Of a stretch of 64,000 nucleotides of DNA, positions 1,461 through 52,963 are shown piece after piece (position 1 is the first letter of the stretch; every line of letters begins with the position of its first letter). Source of the DNA: Trueperaceae bacterium (GTDB lineage: Bacteria > Deinococcota > Deinococci > Deinococcales > Trueperaceae); the NCBI GenBank assembly GCA_034520945.1, contig JAXHNB010000001.1, positions 64,001-128,000 of the forward strand, given 5' to 3'. Under the pieces are notes generated by a model. It made no database searches, was not told the origin of the DNA, and saw only the letters and a program-made list of their open reading frames with translations. Position numbers and translations under genes: made by a program.

Positions 1461-3014
<1,554 letters not shown>

Positions 3015-3070
3015 GCGGGCCTCCAGGGCGTCACGGATGGGGTCGCGGCGGGGCGTACGACCCACGCCAC

Positions 3071-36999: not shown

Positions 37000-38370
37000 G
37001 TGATGCACACAGGCGACGCGCCCCCGAAGGACACGCGCGACCCCGCGGCCGGCGCCGCGTACCGCCTGCCCGGCGAGGCGACCCGCGCCCTGGCCGAGCG
37101 CCAGGCCCGCGCCCTGTTCCCCATCCAGTCCCGCATGGCGTACTACGGCGACGCCCCCCTCGCCGTCGCCCGCGGGGAGGGCTCCTGGTTGTGGGACGTC
37201 GAAGGCAACCGTTACCTCGACTTCTTCGGCGGCATCCTCACCGTCAGCGTCGGCCACGCCAACCCCGAGGTCGCAGACGCGGTCGAGCGGCAGCTCCGCA
37301 CCGTGCAGCACACCAGCACCCTCTACCTGAACGAGATCACCATCGACGCCGCCGAGCGCATCGCCAGGATCGCCCCCGGCCGGCTGCAGCACTGCTTCTT
37401 CACCAGCAGCGGCAGCGAAGCTGACGAGACCGCGGTGATGGCCGCCCGCATGTACACCGGCCACAGCGACGTGATCGCGCTGCGCCACGCCTACGCCGGC
37501 CGGACCGCCACCGCCATGAGCCTCACCGCTCACGCCAACTGGCGCCTGGGCGGGGTGTTCGACGGCGGCATCAAGCACGTCCGCAGCCCCTACGTCTACC
37601 GCGCGCCGGCCGGCCTGGACGAAGCCGGCCTGCTGGACCTGTGCGTGCAGGACCTGGAGGAGACGATCCAGACCTGCACCGATGGCCGCATCGCCGCGTT
37701 CATGGCCGAACCGATCCAGGGCGTCGGCGGGTTCGTGGTCGCGCCCCAGGACTACTTTCGCCGCATCGAACCGGTCGTGCGGGAGGCCGGCGGCGTGATG
37801 ATCATCGACGAGGTCCAGACCGGCTGGGGCCGCACCGGTCGCCACTGGTGCGGCATCGAGCACTGGGGGATCGAACCGGACGTCATGACCTTCGCCAAGG
37901 GCATCGCGAACGGATTCCCCGTCGGCTGCACCATCACCACGCCCGAGATCGCCGAAGCGGTCGACGGGCCCACGCTGTCCACCTTCGGCGGCAACCCGCT
38001 GGCGATGGCGGCGACGGTCGCCACGCTGGAGGTGATCGAACGTCACGACCTGCCCGCCAACGCAGAAGCGCGCGGAGCGCAGCTCCGCGAGCGGCTGGAC
38101 GCCCTTGCCCGCGTCACCCCCTGGATCGGCGAGGTGCGCGGCATGGGCCTGATGCAGGCGCTGGAGCTGGTGGAGGCCGGCGGCGGCAAGGCGCCCGACC
38201 CCGAACGGACGAACGCTCTGCTGGCCGCCGCGCGCCGTCACGGTTTGCTGATCGGAAAGGGCGGCCTGTACGGCAACGTGCTCCGCATCGCCCCGATGCT
38301 GAATGCCACCGAGGACGAGATCACGCAGGGCGCGGACCGCCTGGACGCCGCCGTGCGAGAGGTCGGGTAA
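37000..38370 (+). CDS. Class III PLP aminotransferase (AGXT2-like), copy 1
   Basis: YLDFFGG, SGSEADE, AEPIQGVGG, DEVQTGWGRTG, AKGIANG, STFGGNP. Confidence 0.92.
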   Translation: MMHTGDAPPKDTRDPAAGAAYRLPGEATRALAERQARALFPIQSRMAYYGDAPLAVARGEGSWLWDVEGNRYLDFFGGILTVSVGHANPEVADAVERQLRTVQHTSTLYLNEITIDAAERIARIAPGRLQHCFFTSSGSEADETAVMAARMYTGHSDVIALRHAYAGRTATAMSLTAHANWRLGGVFDGGIKHVRSPYVYRAPAGLDEAGLLDLCVQDLEETIQTCTDGRIAAFMAEPIQGVGGFVVAPQDYFRRIEPVVREAGGVMIIDEVQTGWGRTGRHWCGIEHWGIEPDVMTFAKGIANGFPVGCTITTPEIAEAVDGPTLSTFGGNPLAMAATVATLEVIERHDLPANAEARGAQLRERLDALARVTPWIGEVRGMGLMQALELVEAGGGKAPDPERTNALLAAARRHGLLIGKGGLYGNVLRIAPMLNATEDEITQGADRLDAAVREVG

Positions 38371-38405: not shown

Positions 38406-40085
38406 ATGAACGCCTGGATCGTTCGGATCCCCGTCGCCCTGTTCGCCGCGCTGCTGGCGGTGGCGGCGGCGTTTCCCGCCACGCCCGTTCCGGTGCTGGG
38501 GCTGTCCGCGCTGTTGTTCGCGGCCGCCACCGCGCGGGCGTTCGGGCTGGGGGTGGCGTTGCTGGCGCTGCCGGTGGCCGCCACGGTGGTGGCCCGCCCC
38601 TGGAACGAAGCCGGCGGCGCGCTGAGTGTCGAACCGATGTTCCTCGCCGCCCTACCGGCGTTCGCGCTGGCCGGCCTCTGGATCGGCCGATTGGAGCGCC
38701 ACCTGGGCGCGCAACGCCAGGTGAGCAAACAGGCGCAGTTCGACCCCCTCACCGGCCTGCTGAACCGCACCGCCTTCGAGCGCATCGCGGGCGAGGCGAT
38801 GCTGGAGGCCCGCGAGCGCAACGGCATGGTCGCGATGTTGTTCATCGACCTGGACCGCTTCAAGGTCGTCAACGACACCTACGGGCACGAACTCGGCGAC
38901 GCCGTCCTGCGGCGCGTTGCCGACCTCCTCCGCGAGCACGTGCGGCAGGCCGACCTGGTCGGCCGCCTCGGCGGCGACGAGTTCACCGTCGCGCTCCGCA
39001 ACCTGCGCGAACCCGACAGCGCCGCCTCCGTCGCCCGCAAGCTGCTGAAGTTGCTCAACGAACCCCAGGAGGTCGCCGGCCGCCGCATCGAGGTCGGCGC
39101 CAGCATCGGCATCGCCATGTACCCCCGCGACGGCCAGGACGTCACCGAGCTGCTCAAGAACGCCGATCACGCCATGTACCAGATCAAGGACCGCGGCCGC
39201 AACGGCATCAGCTTCTCCAGCCACGAGACGCAGATCCGCAACGACCGCCGCATCGAGGTCGAGCGGCAACTGCGCGGCGCCCTCCACGAGGACGAGTTCG
39301 AGCTGCACTACCAACCCAAGGTCGACTTCCGCAGCGGCGGCCTGGCCGGCGTGGAGATGCTGCTCCGCTGGCGCAACCGTGACCTGGGCCTGGTGTCGCC
39401 TGATGAGTTCATCCCCATGGCGGAAGAGACCGGCATGATCCTGCCGCTGGGCCGCTGGCTGCTGCGCCAGGCCTGCTTCCAGCTGCGCGACTGGGACGAG
39501 GCCGGCCTGCCCCCCATCACCCTCGCCGTGAACGTCTCTACCCTGCAGTTCCGCCAACCCGACTTCGTCCACGCCGTCGAGGAGGCACTCCGCGACTCCG
39601 GGATCGCCCCCGCCCGCCTGGAGCTCGAGATCACCGAGTCCGTCCTGATGAAGGAATACGCCGCCTCCCTGCGCCAGCTCGAACGTCTCGCCGCCCTCGG
39701 CGTCGGCATCGCCCTGGACGACTTCGGCACCGGCTACTCCTCCCTCGCCTACCTGCAGAACCTGCCCATCCGCACCCTCAAGATCGACCGCTCGTTCGTG
39801 TCCGGCCTGACCCTGCGCGGCGGCGGCGAACCGGGCGGCACCGCCCCCATTGTCGAGACCATCCTCACCCTCGGCCAAAAACTCGGCAAGGAGATCGTTG
39901 CCGAAGGGGTCGAGACCCGCGGCCAGGCCCGCTGGCTGGCGCAATCCGGCTGCACCTACGGGCAGGGCTTCCTGTACGCCCGCCCGCAACCCGCCAGCCG
40001 CATCGCCAAGCTGCTGGAGCGGGCCGTGCCGGCGCCGACGCGCGCGGACGTGCGGGGGGAGCGGTTGTTGATGTCGGGGGCGTGA
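38406..40085 (+). CDS. Membrane-anchored GGDEF-EAL protein, copy 1
   Basis: N-terminal TM segments, DPLTGLLNR, RLGGDEF, EML, ELEITE, DDFGTGYSSL, AEGVE. Confidence 0.93.
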   Translation: MNAWIVRIPVALFAALLAVAAAFPATPVPVLGLSALLFAAATARAFGLGVALLALPVAATVVARPWNEAGGALSVEPMFLAALPAFALAGLWIGRLERHLGAQRQVSKQAQFDPLTGLLNRTAFERIAGEAMLEARERNGMVAMLFIDLDRFKVVNDTYGHELGDAVLRRVADLLREHVRQADLVGRLGGDEFTVALRNLREPDSAASVARKLLKLLNEPQEVAGRRIEVGASIGIAMYPRDGQDVTELLKNADHAMYQIKDRGRNGISFSSHETQIRNDRRIEVERQLRGALHEDEFELHYQPKVDFRSGGLAGVEMLLRWRNRDLGLVSPDEFIPMAEETGMILPLGRWLLRQACFQLRDWDEAGLPPITLAVNVSTLQFRQPDFVHAVEEALRDSGIAPARLELEITESVLMKEYAASLRQLERLAALGVGIALDDFGTGYSSLAYLQNLPIRTLKIDRSFVSGLTLRGGGEPGGTAPIVETILTLGQKLGKEIVAEGVETRGQARWLAQSGCTYGQGFLYARPQPASRIAKLLERAVPAPTRADVRGERLLMSGA

Positions 40086-47546: not shown

Positions 47547-47654
47547 CCCCGCGACCGCGAATTGGGCCCGCCCGCACGCGTGCTGGACTCGCCGCCAACG
47601 CCGCCGCGGCGGGGCCTTCGTCGGCCCCGAGCCCGCCCGGCCCAGGAGGTACGC

Positions 47655-48972
47655 ATGAGCGCGATGGAGACCCGCAGCCGCATGGCGGAGCTACGCGAAC
47701 GCCAGAAGCAGGCACTGTTCCCGATCCAGTCGAAGATGCTGCTCTACGGCGAGAAGCCCCTTGCCGTCGACCGCGCCGAGGGATCGACCGTGTGGGACGT
47801 CGAGGGCAACGAGTACCTCGACTTCTTCGGAGGCATCCTCATGGTGAGCGTGGGGCACGCCAACCCCGAGGTCGTCGAGGCCACGCATCAGCAACTCCAA
47901 CGCGTCCAGCACACCAGCGCGCTGTTCATCAACGAGAAGACCATCGAGGCCGCCGAGCGCATCGCGGAGGTCACGCCCGGGCGGCTGCGCAGCTGCTTCT
48001 TCACCAACTCCGGCAGCGAGGCCGATGAGACGGCCGTGATGGTCGCCCGCATGTACACCGGCAACACGGACGTGATCGCGCTGCGCCACGCCTACTCGGG
48101 ACGCACGGGCACCGCGATGAGCCTCACCGCGCAGAGCAATTGGCGCCTGGGCGGCGTCTTCGACGGCTCCATCAAGCACGTCCGCAACCCGTACCACTAC
48201 CGCGCGCCCCTTGATCTGGACGAGGACGAGTTCCTGGAGCTGTGCGCCCAGGACCTCGAGGAGACGATCGCGACCTGCACCAACGGCCGTATCGCCGCGT
48301 TCATGGCGGAGCCGATCCAGGGCGTGGGCGGCTTCGTGGTGGCGCCCCAGAAGTACTTCAAGCGCATCGAGCCGATCGTCAAGGACGCCGGCGGCCTTAT
48401 GATCATCGACGAGGTGCAGACCGGCTGGGGCCGGACCGGCACCCACTGGTGCGGCATCGAGCACTGGGGCATCGAGCCGGACGTGATGACCTTCGCGAAG
48501 GGCATCGCCAACGGCTTCCCCGTCGGTTGCACCATCACCACGCCCGAGGTCGCCGCTGCCGTCGACGGGCCCTCGCTGTCGACCTTCGGTGGCAACCCCG
48601 TGGCGATGGCCGCGACGCTGGCGACGCTCGACGTGATCGAGAAGAACGACCTGCCCGGCAACGCCGCCCGGCAGGGCGCGCGCCTCCGCGAGCGGCTCGA
48701 CGGCTTGCAGGCGCGCTACCCGTTCATCGGGGAGGTGCGCAGCATGGGCCTCATGCAGGGGCTGGAGCTCGTCGTGCCGGACAGCAGCAAGACGCCCGCA
48801 TCCCGCGCGCACGCAGGCGCTCACCGTCGCCGCGCGCAAGCACGGCCTGATCATCGGAAAGGGCGGGCTGTACGGCAACGTCATCCGCATGGCGCCGATG
48901 CTCAACAGCGACGCCGACGAGATCGACCGCGGCGTGGGCCTGCTGGAGGCGGCCCTCGGCGACGTGGCGTGA
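47655..48972 (+). pseudogene. Class III aminotransferase copy 2, +1 frameshift near 48799
   Basis: Close paralogue of 37000-38370. CCCGCATCCC should read CCC GAT CCC; GLIIGKGGLYGNVIRMAPML continues in the shifted frame to TGA 48970-48972. Confidence 0.85.
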
Positions 48973-49089
48973 TCCCCGCGCGTCCTCCTCGCGACGGGCG
49001 CGCTGGATACCGTACCCGACGCACGCGTCAGGATTCTGTGACGAACGCGTAAGTACGCCGTTGCGCGCCCTTCCGTAGGCTCCGACCAT

Positions 49090-49981
49090 GGTGCGTCGTG
49101 ACGAAGCTACGTTGTCTTCCCGGTTGGGGAGTGCGCTTGCTTCTTGCTGCACGTCTCTTGCGGGTGTGAGTCCCGTCCCGGTAGGTGTCGGAGCGCCGGG
49201 TAGCAGGCCCCAGGTGTTTGGGGGAGACCCCTTCGCCCGAGCGGGGTGTCGAAAGCCTGTGAGGCGACTTCGGTCGTTGAGTGGGGAGCAAGCGCGCGGG
49301 CCGCAACATGAAGTGAATCCTGCAGCCTCGTTAGAGTCACAATCCGGAAGCCGAGCCGCTCATGTCACGGTGAAGGCCACGTCTGGCACGCTTGTTCCGA
49401 AGCGCGTGTTGGGTTCCGGCGGGGTACGGGGAGCAGCACGCGTGCATAGAGGGGTGTGGAACTCGAGAGGCCCGTCTCGGTTGCCGTTGCCGCGGCAAGG
49501 CGTTTCGTATAAGTCAAGGACGAAGTCGAGCGCTGCCGAGCGGGAGTCCGAGGGGACCGTAGTACTGTTGTCTGCCTTGTGTGGGTGGGCGCGATGGTCG
49601 TGTGGCAGAACGCGGCTGGAGGGAAGGGTCCCTGCGGTGGTTGGTGTCGTTGATGTGGGTAAGCGCGAGGGCATGGCCGGCTGGACCGGTTCTAACTACC
49701 CCCTGGGGCTCTGGTCTCATGGTGAAAGCGCGAGATCTGCGGAGGCGACTGTGGGTTGGGGCCAACTGGCCGTTCCAGGCGTGCGTTCATGCTGTTGTGC
49801 CAACTTCTTGGGGTGGCGCCCTGGGGAGGGTGTGAAGGCGTGTTTCTGGGCGGGTTGGGTAAAGCCTCGACTTGAGCGGCCACCGGAAAGCCGTGTGCGG
49901 GAAATCCGCACGCACGGTTTGAACGGGGGTCTTGACTACCATGCCCGCCGTAAGGCGCGGAAGGAGTAAGGATCTACCAAT
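49090..49981 (+). mobile_element. ORF-less (RT-deleted) group II intron at the start codon of the GGDEF-EAL gene
   Basis: GTGCG at 49091; domain V AAGCCGTGTGCGG-GAAA-TCCGC-AC-GCACGGTTT (49888-49920) with AGC triad; domain VI with bulged A 49976; ends CCAAT. Only a short trace resembling the start of an intron-encoded protein remains (~49660-49765). Confidence 0.9.
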
Positions 49982-51247
49982 GGCCGCGTGGACCCGAATG
50001 CTCCTGACGCTCCTGGTGTGGGCGATCCTCGTGGTCGTGGCGGTGAGCGGCTGGCTGGACGCCGCCGCCGTGGCCGCACTGGCCCTGCCGGCCGCGTTCG
50101 TGGCCGGCAGGACGTTTCGCTGAACGGGTGGGATCGTCGGCGCCGTGGTCGCCTGGGCCCTGCTGCGTGCCGCCCAGGTCGAGGCCGGTGGGTCCTGGGT
50201 GCCGGCTGCATTCTCCCCAGGGCTCATGGAGCCCATGGCGCTCGTCGCCATGGGGTCGGCGGCGCCTGGGTGTCGTACCTGCAGGCACAGCTCGACTCGC
50301 AGCGGATTGCCTCGGCGAAAGCCCAGTACGATCCCCTCACCGGGCTCCTCAATCGCGCCGCCTTCGAAGCCAAGGTTCACGACGCGATGTCCGAGACCTA
50401 CGAGCGCGGCTCGATCCTCGCGCTCCTGTTCGTGGACCTCGACCGCTTCAAGTTCGTCAACGACACCTATGGCCACGAGGTCGGCGACAGGCTTCTGCGG
50501 CGTGTGGCCAAGATCCTGGGCGAGCATGTCCGCGAGCACGACCTGGTCGGGCGCCTGGGCGGCGACGAGTTCACCGTCGCCGTACCCGGCTCCGCGAGGA
50601 GGATTCCGCGCGGGCGGTGGCCCGCAAACTGGTGTCCGTGCTCAACGAGCCCCACCACATCGACGGCCGGATGGTGCACGTCAGCGCCAGCATCGGCGTC
50701 TCCATCTACCCGCGTGACGGCACCACCGTCGACGCCCTGCTCAAGAACGCCGATCACGCCATGTACCTGGTCAAGGAGGGCGGCAAGAACGGCGTCTTCG
50801 TGACCACGCTCGAATCGCAGCGTGTCAACGGTCGCCGGCTGGACCTCGAGAAGCAGCTGCGCGCGGCGCTCCAGGAGGACGAGTTCGAGCTTTACTACCA
50901 ACCGAAGGTCGACCTCCGCACCGGCGCGCCCGTCGGGGTCGAGATGCTGCTGCGCTGGCGCAACCGGGAGCTGGGTCTGGTCTCGCCGGAGGAGTTCATC
51001 CCCATGGCGGAGGAGACGGGACTCATCGTGCCCCTCGGGCAGTGGTTGATGCGGCAGGCCTGCCACCAGCTGCGCGACTGGGACCGGGCCGGGCTCCCGC
51101 CCGTGGAGTTGGCGGTCAACGTGTCCACGCTGCAGTTCCGCCAACCGGACTTTGTCGCCGCCGTCGAGGGCGCGCTGGACGACAGCGGCCTGCCGCCCGA
51201 CCGGTTGGAGATCGAGGTCACCGAGAGCGTGTTGATGCGCGAGCTAG
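49980..51247 (+). pseudogene. GGDEF-EAL protein copy 2: nonsense codon, two frameshifts, truncated by IS
   Basis: MAAWTR start resembles MNAWIVR of copy 1; TGA 50121-50123; shifts near 50255 and 50590; RLGGDEF present; EAL domain stops at EVTESVLMREL. Confidence 0.88.
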
Positions 51248-52963
51248 CCCGCTTTATTCATGAGAGGCGCTGTTGGGCGGGTTTCGGGTGGGGTTGGGCG
51301 GCGTGAGCGGGGGGTCACGCTCGTCGGTGGGCGTGTCGGGGTTTCGTTGGTGGCATTGTGGGTGGTTCGGACGTCGTGAACGAGGTTCACGAGGCCTGAA
51401 GGGCCGCGTTGGGGCGTAGGGGGCCCTTCGGCGCCAGGGGTTGGCGTCGATCGTGGGGTCGAGGTTCGTTATTGGGGCTTCGGGGGTCGTTCAGGCGGTG
51501 CTGGTGGCTTGCAGGGCTCTGGCGACGTGCCGCCATTCCTGTTGCCAGGGGGCGTCCTGGGGGAGGTGCAGGACGATGCGGCGGGCGGAGGTCTTGATCC
51601 ACGCGCCGAGCTTGATGAGGCGCTCGCGGAGGGTGCCCGCGTACGCGCGGGCCAAGCTCGTGCCGGCCGCGTGCAGCCGGAGTTCCTGGTACAAGGCGTA
51701 CGCGGCGGTGTGCAGCAGCAGGCGGGCTTGGTTGGCGAGGAACCGCGTGCAACTGAGCCGGTCTGCGGCCAGGTGCTCCTGCAGTTCTTTCAGGCGGTTC
51801 TCCATGTCGCCGCGCTTGGCGTACATGCGGCGGTAGATCACTTCCGGATCGGCGCCTACGTTGGTGATGAGGAAGCGGGGGTTGTCCCGCGCCTCCCGCC
51901 CGGGATGCTGGGTGACTTCGGACTTGTACACGACCGTTCGTTCGTGCGGCCAGCTGCGCGTCTGGTAGGGGGGCGTGCCCGTAGCGGCGTTCGCTCTGCC
52001 CGCTCGCCGCGCTGGCCTGACGGGCGTCACGCATGCGGGGTTCCGCCAGGCGTTCCAACACCGGGTTCTTGGAAATCCCGACCACGTACTCCACGCCCTC
52101 TTCCTCGAGGAACGAGAAGATCTCGGGGAGGCGAACCCGCCGTCCAACCGCACCCGCAAGCGCGCCTTGGGGAACGCACCTCGGAGGCGCGCCAGGATGC
52201 GGCGCAACAACCCCGTCGCGCCCAGGGCGGGTGGCGCGTTGCCCTTCCGCAGGAGGCTCGTCAAGACGTACTGATCCCGTTCTTGCTCGAACTGCATGGA
52301 GGCAACCAACGGCAAGTAGCAGTGCTCCCCGTAAAACCCGTTGAACAACGCGCCCTGCTGCGCCCCGTGCGTGGGGTCGTCCGTGCCGTCCACATCGACC
52401 GTGATGCGTTTCGCCCGGCCCCGACGGTGGGCCCGGTGCCGTTCGATCACACCCTCGGCGAGGGCGACGCCCATCTCGAACACCTCCCGGCGCGTCACGC
52501 CGTTCTCGAACCGTGACAGCGTCGGTTGCGACGCGAGATCTGCTCCCCGTTCGGGGTCCCGGTCGACCACCAGCTTGTGCATGGGGTCGTGCCGCAACCT
52601 TGCGGCGTCGTTGCCGTCCTCGTACCCGCAGGCGATCCCGACCACCCGCTGGCGAAGCACGTCCCCAAACGAGTGCTGCACGCGCTCCGGGTCCCGCCGG
52701 TCCCTCAACACCGACGCCATCGCGGTCGTCAAGCCCAGCCGGTCGTCCGCGCCGCGAAGCAACACCGCCCCACCATCGCTGGTGCCGAGCGGCTGATCGA
52801 ACATCGCCACCAACGGCTTCGTGAACCACCCCTCGAACAACACAGGCTGTTGCGTGCTATCCTCGCGCATTAGAAGGCCTCCAACGTGTAGGAAGTTCGT
52901 GCCTCACACCCTTTCTACCACGTTCGAGGCCTTCACGTTTCCAACCCTCACGAATAATTCAGG
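51248..52963 (-). mobile_element. IS1380-family insertion sequence (~1.7 kb)
   Basis: Imperfect terminal IRs CCCGCTTTATTCATGAG / CCTGAATTATTCGTGAG; CTAG on both flanks (51244-51247, 52964-52967). Confidence 0.88.
51491..52870 (-). CDS. IS1380-family DDE transposase with two compensating indels
   Basis: TSDGGAVLL, GYEDGND, ASQPTLSRFEN, DVDGTDDPTHGAQ, YAKRGDMENRLKE. The segment ~51970-52127 is out of frame (EIFSFLEEEGVEYVVG lies in another frame). Confidence 0.85.
   Translation of the reverse strand: MREDSTQQPVLFEGWFTKPLVAMFDQPLGTSDGGAVLLRGADDRLGLTTAMASVLRDRRDPERVQHSFGDVLRQRVVGIACGYEDGNDAARLRHDPMHKLVVDRDPERGADLASQPTLSRFENGVTRREVFEMGVALAEGVIERHRAHRRGRAKRITVDVDGTDDPTHGAQQGALFNGFYGEHCYLPLVASMQFEQERDQYVLTSLLRKGNAPPALGATGLLRRILARLRGAFPKARLRVRLDGGFASPRSSRSSRKRAWSTWSGFPRTRCWNAWRNPACVTPVRPARRAGRANAATGTPPYQTRSWPHERTVVYKSEVTQHPGREARDNPRFLITNVGADPEVIYRRMYAKRGDMENRLKELQEHLAADRLSCTRFLANQARLLLHTAAYALYQELRLHAAGTSLARAYAGTLRERLIKLGAWIKTSARRIVLHLPQDAPWQQEWRHVARALQATSTA

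Follow-up and report, generated by a model that had tools for sequence, protein, structure and literature searches.

A stop-free frame running from a host start codon through an ORF-less bacterial group II intron, and its conservation among related introns

A group II intron lies in the 64,000-nucleotide (nt) stretch analysed here, which comes from the genome of a Trueperaceae bacterium (GCA_034520945.1, contig JAXHNB010000001.1, positions 64,001 to 128,000) and is referred to below, in its whole length, as the window. The intron has lost its open reading frame (ORF) for a reverse transcriptase (RT), sits directly behind the start codon of a host gene and contains no stop over 293 codons in the frame set by that ATG at 49088, designated frame 0. 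This open frame is real and not a product of chance, yet it is no ordinary gene. It is read here, with a probability put at about 0.65, as a lineage trait of introns that occupy the start codons of leaderless-type genes, selected so that ribosomes do not terminate within the ribozyme. In full-length members of the lineage the same frame continues into the RT, and in many members that lack an RT gene it ends in the last intron domain, shortly before a second ATG that the intron brings to the host gene.

The frame had been described in an earlier note on this DNA as running for 293 codons from ATG 49088 to a TAA at 49967-49969, and recomputation returned the same limits. Frame 0 holds no stop before that TAA, the nearest in-frame stop on the 5' side of the ATG is the TAG at 49076, and our own count finds 11 and 12 stops in frames +1 and +2. 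The TAA forms the first three letters of TAAGGA and is separated by 10 nt (49970-49979) from ATG 49980, again in agreement with the note, which had further expected several stops in random sequence and had proposed a dinucleotide-preserving shuffle. Over the 879 bases concerned the shuffles average 7.9 stops per frame, and only 2 of 20,000 leave frame 0 open (14 of 20,000 for any forward frame). All 23 stop triplets of the plus strand fall outside frame 0, an outcome with a probability of (2/3)^23 = 9e-5. That the frame arose by chance, or as an artefact of assembly, in a genome whose high G+C content makes long open frames frequent is barely credible. The window as a whole is 70.7% G+C and holds many long spurious ORFs, and neighbouring genes show frame breaks; the intron stretch itself, however, is 63.7% G+C (G-rich and A-poor), with the stop counts and the shuffle frequency just given, indel errors break frames rather than open them, and the trait recurs in relatives from many assemblies. 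Both junctions of the intron are moreover confirmed by short-read contigs from two runs of one sample (which may be the source sample of the window assembly); these contigs are letter-for-letter identical with the window at 48900-49197 and 49894-50200 and show one difference from it at 49700-49883.

The element that carries the frame is a group II intron, an inserted unit of 892 nt. The Rfam family RF02003 (group-II-D1D4-4, domains I to IV, D1-D4) matches 49158-49311 with 73 bits (gathering score 49), and RF00029 (D5/D6) matches 49886-49953 with 44.5 bits (gathering score 40). A GTGCG, which conforms to the 5'-terminal GUGYG of such introns, begins at 49091 directly after ATG 49088, and the fold of 49884-49985 contains both the D5 and the D6 hairpin. 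The pairing of D6 is kept by compensatory changes (GGCGTTGG..CCAACGTC) in two relatives, L048 and L173, and our own reading of this pairing suggests the A at 49976, 7 nt from the unit end, as the candidate bulged branch point, with 49968 as an alternative. Of the RT/maturase that such introns encode in domain IV, the window copy retains a remnant only. Frame 0 crosses GKREGMAG..SNYP, which the earlier note had likened to the start of an intron-encoded protein (IEP), and ATG 49673 lies in frame 0 where the RT ORF of relatives has a conserved GKREGMAG.TGPNDP; the homology to the RT N-terminus (MVKARDLRRRLW..) runs on in frame +1 after about 49690-49722. Homology to the full-length copy on contig C5 of the same genome (L002, G000:C5:834294-837473, about 1500-3050) ends at 49765 and restarts at 49871, and a related contig, from the run that best contains the window, carries 1281 extra letters at the joint 49762>49874. 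Since the RT gene itself is missing and the flanks of the gap are 91% and 93% identical to the C5 copy, the window copy is an ORF-less derivative. The RT/maturase of the C5 copy, P0001, is intact at 437 amino acids (aa), matches RVT_1 (3.7e-34) and GIIM (2.4e-16) only, and scores 410 bits with TIGR04416; its PDB and NCBIfam matches are only as specific as "group II intron RT/maturase". At its 5' end the intron on C5 is truncated, homology to the window beginning at ~49598, and it is therefore unusable as a test of D1-D3. A DNA search of 60 relatives from the bacterium's own genus, family and order found no further intron copies, the sole match being 23 nt long.

Relatives by which the frame can be judged came from elsewhere. 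An RT search found 585, from which 80 loci were kept and whose record titles name Myxococcota, Planctomycetota, Acidobacteriota, Actinomycetota and others; scanning metagenomes for a 21-base stretch of domain V added 80 more. An RT identity to P0001 of at least 66% is shared by 16 genome relatives, and in 14 of these (all but L008 and L011) no stop interrupts frame 0 between the exon ATG and the RT, the other frames holding 3-13 stops each, and in those 14 the RT is continuous with frame 0, which gives single ORFs of 630-680 codons and one of 965. Among full-length metagenome copies with a recognisable 5' end, 11 of 17 have no stop between the start triplet and that of the RT; in five of the remaining six, the two sides of a single frame change overlap stop-free, and many of those metagenome assemblies may, as is assumed here, contain indel errors. 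An alignment of D1-D3 from the window and 14 relatives (15 sequences; pairwise identity 0.70-0.99, median 0.75) has nine internal gap blocks, seven of them multiples of three, and across its 13 non-redundant sequences (identity 0.70-0.87) frames 1 and 2 each have 22 distinct stop sites whereas frame 0 has none; the chance of 44 stop sites all missing frame 0 is (2/3)^44 = 2e-8. Two checks that the earlier note had asked of homologues, an open frame and indels in multiples of three, are thereby answered in its favour. In protein databases, 255 clusters of 514-2000 aa match residues 1-210 of the window product, and RVT_1 is present in 119 of the 120 that were listed, whose lengths are mostly 625-690 aa; such fused proteins are annotated without comment, for example as "Retron-type RNA-directed DNA polymerase" or "group II intron reverse transcriptase/maturase". 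Polyangium fumosum DSM 14668 and Sandaracinus amylolyticus are among the hosts named in records of the genome relatives and of these proteins. In full-length copies some 30 nt separate the RT stop from the D5 that follows, and some 120 nt separate it from the ATG at the 3' end of the unit. An internal GAGGGAATG is also conserved in relatives, and an internal start of the RT is possible. In a set of distant relatives (L014, L024, L028, L031, L045, L068, L073, L074 and others) the exon-ATG frame often ends near codon 126, at a conserved UAA of D3 in "GTATAAGCC", and the RT frame, which is mostly -1 to it, has no stop as far back as offset 110-290, so that the two overlap. The arrangement suggested -1 frameshifting, but a search for a conserved X_XXY_YYZ heptamer found none (CCCGGGG occurs in 3 of 12); a frameshift device, a relic or chance may each account for it.

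The D1-D3 alignment varies without codon periodicity, the entropy at the three codon positions being 0.52/0.59/0.55 (Kruskal-Wallis p = 0.82), and the property conserved in it is thus translatability and not a protein sequence. Frame 0 of the window copy is likewise unbiased, with a G+C content by codon position of 0.65/0.63/0.64 (chi-square p = 0.35) as compared with 0.65/0.45/0.95 and 0.65/0.44/0.92 for two genuine genes in the window, and its 293-aa peptide, which is rich in R, G, A, S and P, matches no Pfam family, all of which bears out the impression in the earlier note that the product does not resemble a folded protein. A real protein of ~300 aa, or a functional N-terminal domain of the RT, encoded in overlap with the ribozyme is accordingly very unlikely. 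Such a protein might be suspected from the hundreds of predicted proteins that align over 96-97% of the query, from the many invariant columns among them and from the extension fused to the RT in 255 proteins; the conserved columns, however, coincide with conserved ribozyme sequence, and the members differ in the frame that is read from the RT remnant to D5, in addition to the missing periodicity, third-position bias and Pfam match.

The point of insertion is fixed by intron-less counterparts of the host gene. The window contains, ~11 kb upstream of the intron, an intact block of two genes, an aminotransferase (37000-38370, 456 aa) and a GGDEF-EAL protein (38406-40085, 559 aa), both intron-less and 80% and 75% identical in DNA to the intron-bearing copies; an orthologous pair, also intron-less, is found in a genome of the same genus (G002:C273). 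The empty site reads ..TAGCGT ACAGCC ATG AAC GCC TGG.. in the paralog (box at window ~38392) and ..TAGGCT CATGGCG ATG ... in the ortholog, and the occupied site in the window reads ..TAGGCT CCGACC ATG [892 nt] GCC GCG TGG.., from which it follows that the intron separates the start codon from codon 2. As both ends of the unit have an ATG, the splice sites could be shifted by up to 3 nt. Downstream of the TGA that closes the host remnant, GGDEF and EAL homology goes on in two other frames, and the short-read contigs agree with the window at this break, showing 0 differences at 49894-50200.

The sequence in front of the insertion suggests a leaderless gene. A hexamer of the form TAnnnT, resembling a promoter -10 box, precedes the ATG in the window as in both intron-less counterparts, and the pattern extends to the relatives. 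Junctions of relatives in which a start triplet immediately precedes GTGYG and the flank extends for 25 nt or more number 40; ATG is used at 34 of them, GTG at five and TTG at one, and TAnnnT occurs 5-8 nt upstream in 35 of the 40 (spacer 6 nt in 20, 7 nt in nine, 8 nt in four and 5 nt in two), as against 48 of 2000 shuffled flanks. The variable spacing of the box argues for a promoter -10 box and a start site and against a fixed recognition site. Across the window's genome, TAnnnT stands before ATG 309 times at 6 nt and 211 times at 7 nt, compared with 43-122 times at other spacers (a 3- to 5-fold excess over neighbouring spacings), and 63-65% of TAnnnT-6/7-ATG starts open at least 150 codons, against 30% of all ATGs; the host thus probably uses many leaderless genes of this geometry, by these counts several hundred. 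Transcription would then start at the A of the exon ATG, and the host AUG, being probably 5'-terminal in a leaderless mRNA, would explain how ribosomes enter the intron. TTGCGC at 49061-49066 was tried as a -35 box and dropped, as it lies only 9 nt from the -10-like box.

Conservation is equally marked at the other end of the unit. The 3' ends of 77 relatives read ..CTACCA followed by ATG (76) or AGG (1) and diverge afterwards; a few further relatives, outside the CTACCA pattern, end in GTG. Among the 69 relatives with at least 303 nt of flank, 53 open at least 100 codons from the terminal ATG, against 10 and 30 in the other two frames. Pfam domains were recognised in seven of the nine host ORFs scanned (ETF, GIDA, SRAP, NAD-dependent DNA ligase, amidohydrolase, glycosyltransferase and DegT), and in the SRAP case residue 1 is aligned to profile position 1, i.e. 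the host ORF begins exactly at the terminal ATG. The lineage, then, occupies the native start codons of diverse ordinary genes and leaves them a start codon. In the window the geometry of translational coupling is present (TAA 49967-69, AAGGA 49968-72, ATG 49980), and termination followed by reinitiation at the intron-borne ATG is plausible from this arrangement. As the RT stop of full-length copies lies ~120 nt before the terminal ATG, coupling would be a feature of the ORF-less form. One metagenome relative (L138, oriented, positions 1-30) directly follows ..GGTCTACCAATG, with which another copy ends, so that the first intron's terminal ATG has served as target for the second in a tandem or nested arrangement; no TAnnnT is present in the 20 bases shown.

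ORF-less relatives are represented in DNA by six IEP-less copies from the metagenome scan. In two of these only one stop interrupts frame 0, at 22 nt from the unit end in L173 (913 nt), where it begins 17 nt ahead of the terminal ATG, and at 26 nt in L167 (920 nt); the frame of L154 (870 nt) stays open until some 30 nt short of D5, near the position of the RT-ORF stop in full-length copies, and L147 (604 nt) is open for 147 codons. D1-D3 of L154, L173 and L167, which are 72-73% identical to the window, have no stop in frame 0 over the first 600 nt, whereas the other frames have 4-7. A far larger sample is provided by the 738 protein clusters of 161-513 aa that match the 293-aa product of the window, many of them over 96-97% of the query; the hits are representatives of 90%-identity clusters, and 120 of the 738 were listed. 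Among those 120, 97 start with M[VS]R (exon ATG plus GTGCG) and 85 contain the D5-encoded (S)RVREI; at least 73 have both motifs, a count of open copies and not a fraction, as gene callers report open frames only, and these end 17-33 residues past (S)RVREI (56 of them at 23-24), so that the stop falls in domain VI. When 20 such proteins are aligned, many columns are invariant, the part from the RT remnant to D5 is read in different frames, and 19 of the 20 return to the same D5 frame. The closest relative, P0122 (293 aa, 80% identical), matches frame 0 over residues 1-201, then window frame +1 over residues 202-242 (71% over 41 aa, E = 6e-18), and then frame 0 again to an identical C-terminus. 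Indels that match these changes, -1 at 49690 and +1 at 49809/49813, are present in contigs of another sample. By this comparison P0122 and the window copy differ by a compensated pair of frame changes, both retaining 293 codons, so that on the homologue question raised in the earlier note a close relative is found to regain the frame by a second indel.

Several observations weigh against selection for an uninterrupted passage of ribosomes, and some of them favour an account in which the frame is a relic. In distant relatives (RT identity at most 63%, mostly Actinomycetota) frame 0 stops after 57-187 codons, which confines the trait to one clade. Three of the six IEP-less DNA copies (L132, L169 and L147) are not open to D5/D6. 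The tail of the window frame, taken by itself (the 279 nt beyond offset 600), stays open in 394 of 5000 shuffles and could be so by chance; the tails of L173 and L167 on their own are open in 469 and 629 of 5000. The host gene of the window copy is broken after 47 codons, and coupling there is without present benefit. AAGGA doubles as the 3' strand of D6 and is replaced in some sublineages (CCAACGTC in L048/L173). An E. coli-type scan for promoters and terminators was negative both at the intron locus and at the paralog. Among the listed contigs, only a 92%-identical relative spans the central part of the intron (49373-49699). A joint that removes 49091-49982 was not seen in the contigs of DNA runs or of an RNA library, the RNA contigs covering the intron and not the exons; contigs cannot reveal starts or strands and are hence uninformative on expression or splicing. 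On the relic account, the frame was selected only in full-length introns, for translation of the RT, and the ORF-less copies inherited it, their tail being open by luck and the stop on TAAGGA being one of three possible outcomes of the D5-D6 sequence. The tail shuffles, the three interrupted copies and the broken host gene are all compatible with this, as is the fact that a conserved D5-D6 leaves one of three frames open to a D6 stop in any copy. The account is nevertheless unlikely: D6 is reached by at least 73 separate ORFs of ORF-less copies, every one standing for its own 90%-identity cluster, these ORFs come back to the D5 frame although the frame used in their middle parts varies, the P0122/window pair has compensated one frame change with another, and D1-D3 of the three ORF-less copies are as free of frame-0 stops as described above.

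Selection against termination inside the ribozyme, the preferred reading, can be set out as a sequence of steps, in which translation itself, coupling and any effect on splicing are deduced from sequence features. The primary transcript would begin AUG-GUGCG, the 5' exon being just AUG, and a ribosome loading on this 5'-terminal AUG would read straight into the ribozyme. In full-length members the frame would carry it across domains I-III into the RT/maturase as one ORF of ~640 codons; in ORF-less members it would pass domain V and stop in domain VI, 10-20 nt before the intron-borne ATG, from which the host ORF continues. The peptide would be dictated by the RNA, and the selected property would be that no ribosome terminates inside the ribozyme. 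Three purposes may be envisaged: the leaderless start of the host would serve for translation of the RT; early termination, and the polarity and RNA decay that it brings, would be avoided, as a stop inside the ribozyme would free the ribosome and leave a long untranslated RNA; and in ORF-less copies a ribosome at the D6 stop would melt the helix in which AAGGA..ATG is concealed and begin anew on the host gene. A given molecule should not be translated and folded as a ribozyme at the same time. The earlier note had proposed selection for ribosome transit through the ribozyme, followed by termination and reinitiation at the host gene. That interpretation as a whole is partly supported, and its central inference, the selection for transit, survives the homologue test: the frame is kept open across homologues, in a richer context of leaderless start, fused RT frame and rebuilt ATG, and the primary family trait proves to be the fusion of exon ATG and RT and not termination on a Shine-Dalgarno (SD) sequence. 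Going further, these introns could constitute a widespread and so far undescribed bacterial group II lineage specialised for the start codons of leaderless genes, with a fused RT ORF of ~640 codons, an ORF-less subfamily whose ORF of ~300 codons ends in D6, and a host restart by coupling even without splicing; this fuller proposal is put forward tentatively, at a little short of even odds. Target choice, which involves the 3-nt ATG and a -10 box at variable spacing, may reflect insertion into open promoter complexes or into the 5' ends of leaderless transcripts.

The arrangement can be compared with several known systems. Translational coupling by termination-reinitiation is familiar from bacterial operons, and the likeness lies in an upstream frame that ends 10-20 nt before, or overlapping, the downstream start and in an SD held in a helix that the ribosome would open; the difference is that the upstream frame is here a sequence-agnostic reading of a ribozyme and not a gene, coupling in the intron being predicted from the sequence. 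Yeast mitochondria offer a second comparison, as aI1 and aI2 are translated as exon-intron fusions that are then processed. Like mitochondrial exon-fused ORFs, the introns described here have one frame that leads from the exon via domains I-III into the RT/maturase and starts at the host start codon, and in full-length relatives, as in the window frame, the intron reading frame agrees in phase with the upstream exon and is open from it. Unlike the mitochondrial fusions, they have bacterial hosts, a 5' exon that consists only of the start codon of a probably leaderless mRNA and an RT without an endonuclease domain; the ORF-less derivatives, furthermore, are open through D5 into D6, and the intron brings a new host ATG. 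Exon-fused intron ORFs and "core creep" in mitochondrial and organellar group II introns are treated in the portion of a review, PMC8393795, that was available. Among group II introns in frame with an upstream exon, the cases that a literature search returned are organellar by title and abstract, and the one bacterial group II paper among the results, PMC1702495, concerns, in its accessible text, the choice of 3' splice site.

A lineage of IIB1 introns at start and stop codons (Michel et al. 2007) is described in the available part of PMC12584367 as inserting within or next to initiation or termination codons. By the same excerpt, it has an insertion of 300-700 nt in domain I, a CL1-type RT with a C-terminal endonuclease domain, and an RT start and SD in domain IVa. 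The insertion at the initiation codon of a gene is shared. The domain I insertion is absent, the 5' splice site being 585 nt from the RT start in the window and the aligned segment of 14 close relatives measuring 546-594 nt, and the RT differs as well, P0001 having 437 aa with RVT_1 and GIIM only and the RT frame being continuous with the exon ATG in 14 of 16; most relatives found here, as named in their records, also belong to other phyla. With the domain I insertion and the RT endonuclease domain both missing, the intron is not filed in the IIB1 lineage, a comparison made via the citing description only, and it is possible that Michel et al. 2007 describe the intron lineage found here. As for bacterial target specificities, the consulted text of a 2015 review names homing sites, terminators and attC (PMC4424553); a term search of that text returned neither "start codon" nor "in frame", and the text of Toro and Martinez-Abarca 2013 (PMC3552965) contained no "start codon", "ATG", "in frame" or "promoter". 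Group IIC introns resemble the present ones in relying on a short exon-binding pairing and a structural or functional DNA context (here ATG and a -10-like box) with no long homing site, and differ in that the present ribozyme is larger and the context is a promoter and start codon; of the terminator/attC context of group IIC, 0 terminator-like sites were found in 48900-50150. A literature search on group II introns combined with leaderless, start-codon or upstream-frame themes did not find the arrangement described, subscription papers being mostly outside the search and a prior description possible; on start codons and on ORF-less introns, PMC12584367 alone was judged relevant.

In the usual view of bacterial group II introns, the RT is encoded by a free-standing gene inside domain IV, and translation of the intron is avoided or passively tolerated. 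Here a whole clade keeps its ribozyme translatable from the host start codon, and ORF-less descendants retain the property with no protein to make. If ribosomes do traverse the ribozyme, translation, ribozyme folding, splicing and host expression would be mechanically linked in a natural system, and the lineage would provide a bacterial parallel to the exon-fused intron ORFs of mitochondria. A -10 box, a start codon and a rebuilt 3' ATG would also make a fourth target specificity beside the three named in the accessible text of the 2015 review (PMC4424553), and the insertion pattern offers a handle on how mobile introns persist in housekeeping genes. The same explanation accounts for hundreds of database entries, namely "hypothetical proteins" of ~300 aa and RTs ~200 aa longer than P0001.

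Table 1. Features of the intron and its insertion site, in window coordinates.
Feature	Position	Strand	Remarks
-10-like hexamer TAGGCT (TAnnnT)	49076..49081	+	6 nt 5' of ATG 49088; host DNA; kept in paralog (TAGCGT) and ortholog (TAGGCT)
Host start codon ATG	49088..49090	+	Last 3 nt before GTGCG; sets frame 0; probably 5' end of a leaderless mRNA
Stop-free frame 0, 293 codons	49088..49969	+	From ATG 49088 to TAA 49967-49969
Inserted unit, ORF-less group II intron, 892 nt	49091..49982	+	From GTGCG to ..CTACCAATG; Rfam and empty-site comparison
Domain I core	49158..49311	+	Rfam group-II-D1D4-4
RT gene remnant	49673..49835	+	ATG 49673 (MAGWTGSNYP) in frame 0
Domain V hairpin	49888..49920	+	Frame 0 reading SRVREIRTHGL, as in ORF-less relatives
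Domain VI hairpin	49925..49978	+	3' strand contains TAA 49967-49969 and AAGGA 49968-49972
Terminal ATG of the inserted unit	49980..49982	+	Start of the continuing host ORF; AAGGA with 7-nt spacer upstream
Host gene remnant, N-terminal membrane part of GGDEF-EAL protein	49980..50123	+	TGA after 47 codons

The surroundings of the two copies in this genome may be added. The intron of the window sits in a decaying duplicate block (47562-51306), in which the aminotransferase copy changes frame near 48790, and the minus strand just past the broken GGDEF-EAL copy holds an ORF of 459 aa (51491-52870) for a putative transposase, consistent with a degenerating region. The C5 copy is located a short way upstream of a pilT-like ORF; within the C5 copy, the ancestral RT-start frame (MAG..) stops at a TAA in ATGGATAA that overlaps the present ATG of the RT, an overlap typical of coupling.

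In environmental sequence data, a near-identical ORF-less intron occurs at high depth in the contigs of two runs on one alkali-sediment sample, a DNA run and an RNA library (X11, X20). Those contigs end at 49087 and 49983, as is expected of a repeat present in many contexts. A further ~17 salt-lake, soda-lake and sediment runs contain 10-14% of the sampled words.

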